Positions 42,460-44,697 of a DNA stretch of 64,000 bases are shown in pieces. Made by a program: the position numbers and the translations under genes. The stretch is from an archaeon (GTDB lineage Archaea > Iainarchaeota > Iainarchaeia > Iainarchaeales > 1-14-0-10-31-34), in assembly GCA_043819075.1 (NCBI GenBank), contig JBDRFE010000060.1:780-64779 (forward strand), written 5' to 3'. The notes under the pieces are model-generated. The model saw only the letters and a program-made list of their open reading frames with translations. It made no database searches and had not been told where the DNA came from. Position 1 is the stretch's first letter; every line of letters begins with the position of its first letter.

Positions 42460-43962
42460 ATGTATATAAAAAACTTTGATTCGCTGAAAAAGTATTCCTG
42501 GGTTTGGTTCTGGAGTGGCAACTGGCCTTTGTTTGACTGCTCTTCTGCTGAAGAAGGAAAAGAATTCAAAAAAGTTTTTTTAAAACTTACAGGAACTGTC
42601 CCGACTCTTTCTGCCCTTTTATTTAAAGGGCATAACCTTACGAAATATCAGGCAGAAGAACATTATTCAAGGCTTAGAAAAGTTTTTTTTAAAAATTATG
42701 ACAACAACCCTGCTTATGCTTCACAAATTTTTAATACATTTGATTCTGAGATAAAAGGCAAGAAAAAATTGATTGAACAAATTTCTGGAGAAAATTTTTC
42801 ACTCAAATCTAATGCTGAATTAATTGAATTGTTTGCCTTGGCAAAAAAAGCTTTGGGTTTTGTTCTTGCAATGGATTTCTGGTGCTGGTATACAGAGTAT
42901 TTTTTTACTCCAAGGCTTGAAAAACTTGTTTCTGAAAGGCTTTCAGACAAGAATATGGTTTCAGATGGTTTGATTAAAATTACAACTCCTTTTTTGCCTT
43001 CAAAAACTTTAGAGGAAGAAGAAAGTTTAGTTGAACTGGCTAAGATGGTTTTGCAGGAAAAAATAAATATCGAAAGCTTTAATGAAATTGATTTGCCTGA
43101 ATTTAATGAAAAACTGAACAATCATTTAGAAAAATTCTGCTGGATTCCTGTTTTAGTAAATAATGAACCTTTAACAAAAAAAGATGTTTTGAATGAAATA
43201 AAAAACAAGTCAAAAGAAGACTTGTCTAAATACAAGGGAATGAATTCAAAGCTTGAAAAAACTAAGGCTGATTTTTATTCAACTCTGACTAATCTTGAAC
43301 TTAATGCAACTGAATCAAGGTTTGTAAATGAAATGAATAAAACTGCTTTTTACAGGGCTGAATCAAATTTTCTTTTAAGTTATTTTTCCTTCAAGCTTAT
43401 TCCTTTTTACTCTGAAATGGCTGAAAGAATTGGCTTAACTTACGGGGAACTGAAAAATTTCACTGACGAAGAAGTTGAAAGATTCCTTAAATATAATTCA
43501 AAAGCAGACAGGCAGACATTAAATGAAAGAACTGCATTCTGTTATGTGCTGGAAGAAGAAAAATATTTTCTTGAATCAGGAGAAAATGCATTGAAAATAA
43601 AGTCAATAATTGAAGGAACTCCTTCAGATTCTTCTGGAGAAAAATTTTTTTCTGGAATGAGCGCTTCCTCTGGAACAGTTTTTGGGAAAGCAGTGGTTTT
43701 AAGTGATTCAAGCGAGATTTCAAGAATAGAAAAAGGAGACATTCTTGTTGCTCCTGCGACAAGCGTTGATTTTGTTCCTGCAATGAAAAAGGCTTCTGCA
43801 ATAATAACAGAGTTCGGCGGAATAACTTCTCATGCAGCCATTGTTTCAAGGGAGTTAGGCATTCCGTGCATTGTCGGGGTAAAAAACATCACTAAACTTC
43901 TTAAAGATGGGGACAAAATAAAGGTTGATGCTTTTAAGGGATTAATTGAAAAAGTTGATTGA
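42460..43962 (+). CDS. PEP-utilizing-enzyme mobile (swivel phosphohistidine) domain protein with uncharacterized N-terminal domain
   Basis: C-terminal [21 protein letters not shown]; N-terminal ~380 aa unlike the PPDK/PEPS ATP-grasp region. Confidence 0.55.
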   Translation: [500 protein letters not shown]

Positions 43963-44310
43963 ATGCCACAAAAATTAATGAAAGGAAAAACATTAAGGGT
44001 TACCCTTGATTCAGATGACTTAAAACATTTGGAGTTTGAAAAAAGAGAAGACATTATTAATAAATGGATTAACTGGGAAATAGATGACATTAAACTCAAG
44101 GCAGAAATGAATTCTTACATTGGTTTGTGCCTGTTAAGCGTTTTAGGCGGCTTTTTTGTTTTTAACTGGTTTTTTTTGTTCTTGATTTTCTTTTTTCCTA
44201 AAGTGCTGAATATGCAGTTTGTTTACGGCGACTCAAGCTCTGACAAAAAAAGATGGAAGAAAAAAGTTGTCACAAGAATTGACGGCTTTGACATTGCAAA
44301 GGGCGGTTGA
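43963..44310 (+). CDS. small membrane protein, paralog 1
   Basis: Start abuts the preceding stop; one or two TM segments; KKVVTRIDGFDIAKG tail. Confidence 0.4.
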   Translation: MPQKLMKGKTLRVTLDSDDLKHLEFEKREDIINKWINWEIDDIKLKAEMNSYIGLCLLSVLGGFFVFNWFFLFLIFFFPKVLNMQFVYGDSSSDKKRWKKKVVTRIDGFDIAKGG

Positions 44311-44697
44311 ATGTTTAAACTAGTTAAAGGAAAACAGATTTTGTTTGATGTTGAAACAGACAAGTCTGACATAAAATTCAGGGAAGAAATCGGAAGAACT
44401 TACTTAAACATGAAAATAGATGAAGGAAAAACACTTGGAATCTTTTACTTTAATTTTGTTCTTTTGTTGCTGAACATGGTTTTTGCAGTTTTTGTATCAA
44501 ATATTTTTGTTATTGGAATACTTCTTTCCCTTTACTCCAGTTACCAGTCACACGAAAACTATTTAAGTGCATGGTCTAAAAGAAACAAGTTTGGAAGAAA
44601 AAAAGTAATAAGGATTGACATAGAAAAAAGGCCTGCAATAATTGACAAAGGGCCTCAGGTGCCATGGATTAAAGCAGACAAGACAGTAAAATTTTAA
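44311..44697 (+). CDS. small membrane protein, paralog 2
   Basis: Start abuts the preceding stop; same architecture (KKVIRIDIEKRPAIIDKG). Confidence 0.4.
   Translation: MFKLVKGKQILFDVETDKSDIKFREEIGRTYLNMKIDEGKTLGIFYFNFVLLLLNMVFAVFVSNIFVIGILLSLYSSYQSHENYLSAWSKRNKFGRKKVIRIDIEKRPAIIDKGPQVPWIKADKTVKF

Follow-up and report, generated by a model that had tools for sequence, protein, structure and literature searches.

An archaeal gene locus that probably encodes a membrane-associated variant of a split RPH-type dikinase

A 64,000-nt stretch of archaeal DNA (hereafter the window, to whose full length all coordinates refer) contains a compact locus built around a gene for a 500-aa phosphohistidine swivel-domain protein. 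We consider it probable, by no great degree, that this locus is a membrane-associated variant of a split RPH-type small-molecule dikinase. The kinase-like gene (42460-43962, + strand; hereafter the kinase gene) is followed on the same strand by s1 (43963-44310) and s2 (44311-44697), which encode small hairpin membrane proteins of 115 and 128 aa, respectively, and is preceded by a divergent gene for a 287-aa protein (41504-42367, - strand). The enzyme type, a split RPH-type dikinase, is already known; new is its coupling to a dedicated pair of hairpin proteins and to a putative regulator with a conserved candidate operator. An earlier note on this DNA had described three abutting genes, and the open reading frames (ORFs) confirm this, with a TGA stop immediately followed by an ATG start at both the kinase/s1 (43960-43965) and the s1/s2 (44308-44313) junction and zero spacer between them; the divergent regulator-like gene and its palindrome had been overlooked. 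This layout supports the expression of the kinase gene, s1 and s2 from what is probably a single, tightly coupled transcript. In close relatives the four-gene arrangement is unchanged, at 78-89% identity.

The C-terminal part of the 500-aa protein (aa ~396-500; 43645-43962, +) is the canonical phosphohistidine swivel domain that the earlier note had recognized, and its match to PF00391 (aa 423-494, E 5e-28) is the only Pfam domain detected. The 21-residue swivel motif occupies aa 453-473, and six residues (G453, G454, H458, R464, E465 and C470) are invariant among 56 homologues; the codon of the catalytic His458 lies at 43831-43833 (+). Neither the phosphoenolpyruvate (PEP)/pyruvate TIM-barrel domain (PF02896) nor PF01326 was found in the protein by the Pfam scan, aa 1-~380 matched no Pfam or NCBIfam model at all, and the NCBIfam PEPS model scored the protein at 124 bits, against a cut-off of 598. 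Relatives carry the labels Nanoarchaeota, Woesearchaeota, Micrarchaeota and Patescibacteria. In comparisons with orthologues from two related contigs, the ratio of nonsynonymous to synonymous substitution rates (dN/dS) of the kinase gene was 0.14-0.23.

Structure prediction and profile comparison both led to rifampin phosphotransferase (RPH). RPH is laid out as an ATP-grasp domain (residues 1-314), a rifampin-binding domain (327-754) and a swivel domain (767-865), with Arg666, Glu667 and His825 as catalytic residues (PMC4844700). An AlphaFold model of the 500-aa protein, built from an alignment of 56 full-length homologues (predicted local distance difference test score, pLDDT, 92.3; predicted template modelling score, pTM, 0.91), found RPH-Lm structures as its best Foldseek matches in the PDB (5fbt, 5fbu and 5hv1; E 1e-15 to 1e-14, TMq 0.56-0.58, ~560-570 alignment columns), whereas PPDK, PEP synthase and Enzyme I covered the swivel part only (TMq ~0.19). 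Positions 121-506 of the kinase-family profile aligned as one stretch to RPH residues 467-878 (E 6e-32), with H458 opposite His825 and with R299 (codon at 43354-43356, +), which is invariant in the 15 closest members, opposite the catalytic Arg666. Two homologues of 841-842 aa (P0033 and P0040), covering 98% of the query, carry an N-terminal PF01326 domain, and a hidden ATP-grasp domain in the N-terminal region of the 500-aa protein was ruled out by hhalign (probability 0.2% against the PPDK_N profile). Because of the structural and profile matches to RPH, the aligned His and Arg, the fused PF01326 homologues and the lack of a cryptic ATP-grasp domain, the 500-aa protein is, by homology, an RPH-type dikinase that lacks ATP-grasp and combines the substrate-binding domain with the swivel-histidine component. 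Its N-terminal ~390 aa (42460-43629, +) are no new fold; they are a RIF-binding-type substrate-binding domain of small-molecule dikinases. This region had earlier been thought to resemble neither ATP-grasp and PEP-binding domains nor rifampicin phosphotransferase; the first two statements stand, the N-domain not having modelled as a known PEPS/PPDK nucleotide-binding domain, and the last does not, as the region is homologous to the central rifampin-binding domain of RPH.

Dikinases that carry the ATP-grasp domain on a separate polypeptide are experimentally established: these are the two-component enzymes HpeHI, PpsAB (phenylphosphate synthase) and CreHI (PMC12167813). In HpeH a RIF-binding-like substrate domain precedes the swivel histidine domain, which is C-terminal, and there is no ATP-grasp (PMC12167813). 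The 500-aa protein has exactly this architecture of the H/A component, so the earlier view of it as an orphan, uncharacterized phosphotransfer protein has to be given up. The likeness extends to gene content, as the clusters of relatives hold a separate ATP-grasp gene of 310-315 aa. Among close members of the kinase family (defined by an E value below 1e-150 to a hidden Markov model (HMM) of the N-domain), such stand-alone PPDK_N genes adjoin the kinase gene in the related loci L101/L102, L053 and L099, with Pfam confirmation in L101 (E 3e-93) and L053 (E 7e-101); further stand-alone genes, of 311-312 aa, are found in L112 and L109, and ATP-grasp genes of the fused type in L011/12 and L095.

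There are also differences from the characterized two-component enzymes. HpeH has a mass of ~71 kDa, compared with ~500 aa here, and NCBIfam PRK08296 matches only the swivel part of our protein. In the window the ATP-grasp partner is not adjacent and the context is archaeal (DPANN-like). The kinase gene is linked to a winged-helix-like gene and to the genes of two small membrane proteins, in place of aromatic-catabolism genes, none of which was found near the locus among the window ORFs. RPH itself (5FBS/5FBT/5FBU/5HV1) gives the closest match, in structure as well as in profile, across the two domains and shares the inferred mechanism of a swivel moving between two distant sites (PMC4844700), but it is a single chain whose N-terminal ATP-grasp domain (residues 1-314) is absent from the 500-aa protein. 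With PEP synthase and PPDK the protein has in common the swivel domain and a few dozen preceding residues (8a8e, E 2e-31); unlike them, it has no ATP-grasp domain and no PEP/pyruvate TIM barrel, and its histidine domain is C-terminal rather than central. Enzyme I of the phosphotransferase system (PTS) shares the swivel histidine domain (E ~1e-8), and in the PTS, too, a phosphotransfer chain ends at membrane components; here, however, there is no PEP-binding domain, HPr, EIIA or EIIB, and the two-helix hairpin partners are unrelated to EIIC.

The two genes downstream of the kinase gene encode members of one family, in line with the earlier suggestion that they are paralogues with a common KK-V-[VI]-RID...KG tail. 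Pairwise BLASTP similarity between s1 and s2 is weak (31% identity, E 2e-4); each matches the small-protein family profile at E <= 1e-40 (s1 alone is also listed at E 5e-40). The two proteins, which both carry the K-K-V-x-R-I-D tail, align collinearly along their entire length, and because of this collinearity their paralogy is convincing at the family level. Orthologues 72-98% identical from the same two related contigs yielded dN/dS values of 0.05-0.07 for s1 and 0.04-0.12 for s2, both below that of the kinase gene. Given these values, the small ORFs are real genes, and s1, s2 and the kinase gene are all under purifying selection. The 3' end of s2 overlaps a convergent AlaX-like gene (44694-45440, -) by 4 nt (44694-44697), and this overlap is retained in two related contigs (L001 and L003).

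A word-based search recovered only nine close relatives of the small proteins, and a profile search was needed to reveal the extent of the family: the exhaustive HMMER search found 27 cluster representatives among 1.84 billion, all of them full-profile matches, with lengths of 94-211 aa. A typical family member is ~105-140 aa long. Its N-terminal part has a KLxKG…D…R segment, its hydrophobic hairpin is made of two helices, and its tail reads K-x-[VM]-x-R-[IVM]-D; s1 and s2 share all of these features. Two subtypes could be told apart by their signatures, …AQFxYGD…K-x-V-T-R-[IV]-D in the s1 type (…QFxYGD…K-x-V-T-R-I-D in s1 of the window) and …YLxAWS…K-x-V-x-R-I-D in the s2 type, often with GPxVPW after it (…YLxAWS…K-K-V-x-R-I-D…GPxVPW in s2 of the window). 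Across 33 family members, K97 and D103 of s2 are nearly invariant. The AlphaFold model of s2, based on the alignment of these 33 members, places a helix at residues 24-61, a turn of four residues around Ser-Asn at 62-65 and a second helix at 66-95, with a core pLDDT of 96-98. The membrane nature of the small proteins proposed before is thereby borne out and refined to a two-helix hairpin. This hairpin model would put both soluble ends on one side of the membrane, and since the tails are basic (net charge +5 to +8) that side is probably the cytoplasm.

Searches with these proteins against curated resources were of little help. Foldseek comparison of the s2 model with the PDB returned generic helical hairpins alone (E > 0.7), which is uninformative, and a Pfam/NCBIfam scan of all 33 members gave scattered single-member matches below threshold, with no consistent family. 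PADLOC found no match for any of the four locus proteins, by which we ruled out a defence-system reading of the locus. In the literature we found neither the gene cluster nor the small-protein family described. The small-protein family is uncurated and previously undescribed, and it is the novel element of the locus.

The divergent gene upstream encodes a putative N-terminal winged helix-turn-helix followed by a ~200-aa C-terminal domain, and homologues of it (31-69% identity, E 1e-143 to 8e-51) occupy the same upstream, divergent position beside the kinase gene in L001, L003-5, L006/7, L008/9 and L010. The 92-bp intergenic region between the two genes holds a perfect palindrome, TTAAACCTTTTGGTTTAA (TTAAACC-TTTT-GGTTTAA, 42394-42411, assigned to no strand), of which the window has a single exact copy. 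The palindrome is identical in the window, L001 and L003, and shows a single change (GGTTC) in L006, being nearly intact there despite proteins that are just 39-44% identical; its core is retained as AAACCTTTTGGT in L010 and as AAACTTTTTGGT in L008, even though the identity of the proteins encoded on either side has dropped to 31-44%. A second, palindrome-like site with a 5-nt spacer (TTAAACC-AAAAA-GGTTTAA, 25528-25546) was judged a chance occurrence, as 5 of 100 shuffles give as many matches; it adjoins a tRNA-Ile gene (25431-25504, -) and is probably due to chance or a tRNA-flanking hairpin. Between the palindrome and the kinase gene, TTATATTAA (42429-42437, +) is centred ~27 nt upstream of the kinase ATG and is also present in L001 and L003; judged by archaeal promoters in general, it is a candidate TATA box, which would imply a leaderless or very short-leader mRNA. 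The 287-aa protein is a candidate regulator of the module, and the palindrome may be its operator; the protein would then be the functional equivalent of the HTH_10 regulators that head other clusters (see below). As a further option, we tested the 287-aa protein as an ATP-grasp protein, which was ruled out (hhalign probability 0.3% against the PPDK_N profile).

A regulator-like gene that is always adjacent, together with the nearly invariant K97 and D103 in the tail, would also fit a regulatory phosphorelay in which the swivel protein phosphorylates a protein partner, for example on the nearly invariant Asp within the s1/s2 R-I-D tail. A precedent is the PPDK-derived VadK, which demonstrates that swivel-type dikinases can turn into regulatory kinases (PMC13400623). 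Against such a relay, the protein retains a large RIF-binding-like domain in which the catalytic Arg is conserved, and this argues for a small-molecule site; the tail has no receiver-domain fold, the sole small protein of L006 lacks the Asp (…KKLVKVST), and the several diverged kinase paralogues per cluster better fit a diversification of substrates. We rate a phosphorelay as quite improbable.

We next turn to the linkage between the small proteins and the swivel-domain kinases. In L006/7, a relative at 39% identity, there is a 4-nt overlap between a single small-protein family member and the kinase start codon. For more remote lineages, the linkage test began from five distant small-protein representatives (P0143, P0149, P0146, P0150 and P0141), which match the small-protein profile at E 2e-12 to 1e-9; those representatives that were aligned share ~19-28% identity with s2. 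In all five of these lineages, whose loci were checked by HMM, an s1-type gene is followed by an s2-type gene (L108/9, L111, L112, L113 and L115), and the same strand carries one to four swivel-domain kinase genes, a stand-alone ATP-grasp gene or both. An HTH_10 regulator is present in four of the five and a HAD phosphatase in two: L108/109 has the regulator, three kinase genes and a stand-alone ATP-grasp gene; L112 the regulator, a partial kinase gene, a membrane-anchored HAD protein and a stand-alone ATP-grasp gene; L113/114 the regulator and four kinase genes; L115 the regulator and three kinase genes; and L111, where no regulator was seen, a HAD phosphatase and a swivel-only protein. Finding a swivel-domain gene within a few genes in five out of five independent lineages is very unlikely to be due to chance. 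The small ORFs are conserved together with their neighbourhood, and the proposed tie between a phosphotransfer module and membrane components recurs well beyond the window.

The HAD-family phosphatases within the s1/s2 clusters (L112:1997-2542 and L111:336-761) are homologous, at 39% identity, and that of L112 has a ~40-aa hydrophobic N-terminal anchor; their presence hints at a phosphorylation-dephosphorylation cycle at the membrane. The s1-type and s2-type genes of L108/109 are separated by genes for two extra small multi-helix membrane proteins, one of 120-123 aa and one of 73 aa (L108:4417-5011; L109:1082-1667).

From these elements the following mechanism can be proposed. The winged-helix-like 287-aa protein would bind the palindrome and control both divergent promoters. 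By homology to RPH and HpeHI, a separate ATP-grasp subunit, encoded outside the window, would move the beta-phosphate of ATP onto His458; the swivel domain would then dock on the N-domain, where Arg299 and the nearby Glu301 may position the phosphohistidine, and the phosphate would pass to a hydroxyl of a small molecule, again as in the homologous enzymes. Linkage and predicted topology suggest that s1 and s2 pair in the membrane as a heterodimer of hairpins with both termini in the cytoplasm. Their basic K-x-V-x-R-I-D tails, to judge from the same evidence and from the membrane-anchored HAD protein of L112, may tether the kinase to the membrane, placing it where it would encounter a hydrophobic or incoming substrate.

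Several observations weigh against the membrane-associated dikinase reading. The N-domain shares just 15-18% identity with RPH, the Glu after the catalytic Arg (Glu667 in RPH) lies one position further on (R-E in RPH, R-T-E in the family and R-A-E in the 500-aa protein), and Lys670 of RPH is not conserved, Asn or Asp taking the aligned position in the kinase family. Profile support for a winged helix in the 287-aa protein is weak (MCM4_WHD, E 0.03; MarR-family AdcR, E 0.46, profile positions 15-67). The membrane topology of s1 and s2 is that predicted by one AlphaFold model together with hydropathy, and their contact with the kinase is suggested by gene linkage and that predicted topology. Seen from the kinase side, the linkage is rare: the small proteins are present at one of 94 swivel-centred loci, which turned out to be the L003 contig once more. 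In Nanoarchaeota clusters at 33-35% identity, an unrelated soluble protein of 237-242 aa occupies the slot of the small proteins. Because of the 1/94 count and this substitution, the s1/s2 pair is best viewed as an accessory of a minority of kinase systems that is not needed for catalysis. Finally, the 64-kb window has no ATP-grasp (PPDK_N) homologue (best tblastn E 0.31; nothing in a six-frame HMM scan), and for this reason ATP is only the presumed phosphate donor in this organism.

The Nanoarchaeota slot protein (L008:4276-5004 and L010:4266-4979) sits between the regulator-like gene and the kinase gene and is without a Pfam match. It has an N-terminal 'TRH' and an internal 'HGxSEKTH' motif, and we considered a possible histidine-phosphatase function on account of these RH/HG motifs; Pfam gave no support, and a neighbour from the candidate phyla radiation (CPR) reached only E 0.11 to His_Phos_1.

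An ATP-grasp subunit acting in trans and encoded elsewhere in the genome is the most economical reading of the missing partner. Alternatively, the partner may have been lost in this lineage, and the protein may exchange phosphate between small molecules or be charged by another enzyme such as PEP synthase. HpeH alone catalyses phosphotransfer, from 4-phosphoacetophenone to acetovanillone (PMC12167813), which is the kind of activity this alternative calls for, and besides the lack of an ATP-grasp gene in the window it gains from the arrangement in the Nanoarchaeota loci L008/L010, where the kinase gene is convergent and overlapping with a complete PEP synthase gene, near enolase. However, the window covers just part of the genome, the kinase genes of close family members do have an ATP-grasp gene beside them, whether stand-alone or fused, and we know of no case of trans-charging by PEP synthase. 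On balance we regard ATP-grasp-independent phosphotransfer as unlikely.

The absence of s1 and s2 from most kinase clusters could also mean that the small membrane proteins are functionally unrelated operon neighbours, for example holin-like or housekeeping proteins. Their size, hairpin and basic tail are generic among small membrane proteins, and the Foldseek search offered nothing specific. This possibility is already disfavoured, and we hold it to be highly improbable, since all five distant family members have swivel or ATP-grasp genes next to them and keep the order s1 before s2, the single family member of L006 overlaps the kinase start codon, and the locus has no phage or lysis context and no PADLOC match.

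If s1 and s2 do work with the kinase, they might do more than hold it at the membrane: the two could oligomerize as a small channel or carrier, with an RPH-type kinase trapping the imported compound by phosphorylation, in a PTS-like group translocation. The swivel domain common to PTS Enzyme I, the conserved linkage of membrane pair and kinase and the two additional multi-helix membrane proteins of L108/109 are all compatible with such a capture system, and DPANN relatives have small genomes and rely on scavenging. On the other hand, two hairpins amount to only four helices per heterodimer, Pfam/NCBIfam scans gave no match to a transporter family, most kinase clusters do without s1/s2, and the conserved residues are found in the cytoplasmic tail and not in the membrane helices. 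Capture by these hairpins is thus a doubtful proposition, and we retain the membrane-associated dikinase, with s1 and s2 as membrane partners of the kinase, as the best explanation.

Beyond the s1/s2 clusters, the kinase family itself shows a large diversity. A scan of the genome collection with the full-length kinase alignment gave mostly swivel-only relatives, and a second scan used an alignment of the N-domain only. In metagenome-assembled genomes (MAGs) of Patescibacteria and DPANN archaea, kinase paralogues without ATP-grasp stand in tandem, with 4-9 genes to an array: L014 (Nealsonbacteria), L027, L025, L024, L018, L055, L095/096 and L104. The paralogues within an array are often just 25-35% identical to one another, which suggests a large-scale diversification of substrate specificity. 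In one Woesearchaeota MAG (JAFGGS010000004.1; L023:1-10659), a single ORF of at least 3552 aa, which begins inside an ATP-grasp domain, has eight swivel domains interleaved with segments resembling the substrate domain; this may be one giant dikinase with many modules, or several paralogues fused in a row.

The surroundings of the locus in the window, whose GC content is low (~34%), are made up of archaeal housekeeping genes, namely those for GatD, AlaX, diphthamide synthase, transaldolase and an ATP-dependent DNA ligase. Upstream of GatD (38649-39710) lie genes for an Arrestin_N-like protein of 155 aa and a CYTH-domain protein of 185 aa, which are syntenic in L001 and L003.

Known roles of RPH-type dikinases lie in antibiotic resistance and in the bacterial catabolism of phenol and lignin monomers, and their two-component form was characterized only in 2025. 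Our results indicate that enzymes of this type are widespread in DPANN archaea and Patescibacteria, often as large tandem arrays, and that a subset of them is genetically coupled to an undescribed pair of hairpin proteins and a putative regulator. The locus described here, a compact four-gene unit with a predicted operator, makes this coupling directly testable. It is conceivable, as a speculation that we think improbable in this full form, that s1/s2 and RPH-type kinases make up an unrecognized archaeal membrane-coupled phosphorylation system that captures or modifies hydrophobic molecules, for instance antibiotics, polyprenols, scavenged lipids or compounds resembling quinones or phenols; genome-reduced DPANN archaea would then follow a PTS-like strategy of phosphorylation at the membrane to keep or detoxify compounds of host origin. 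Should the coupling be physical, the locus would represent a membrane-localized small-molecule kinase system in organisms of almost unknown physiology.

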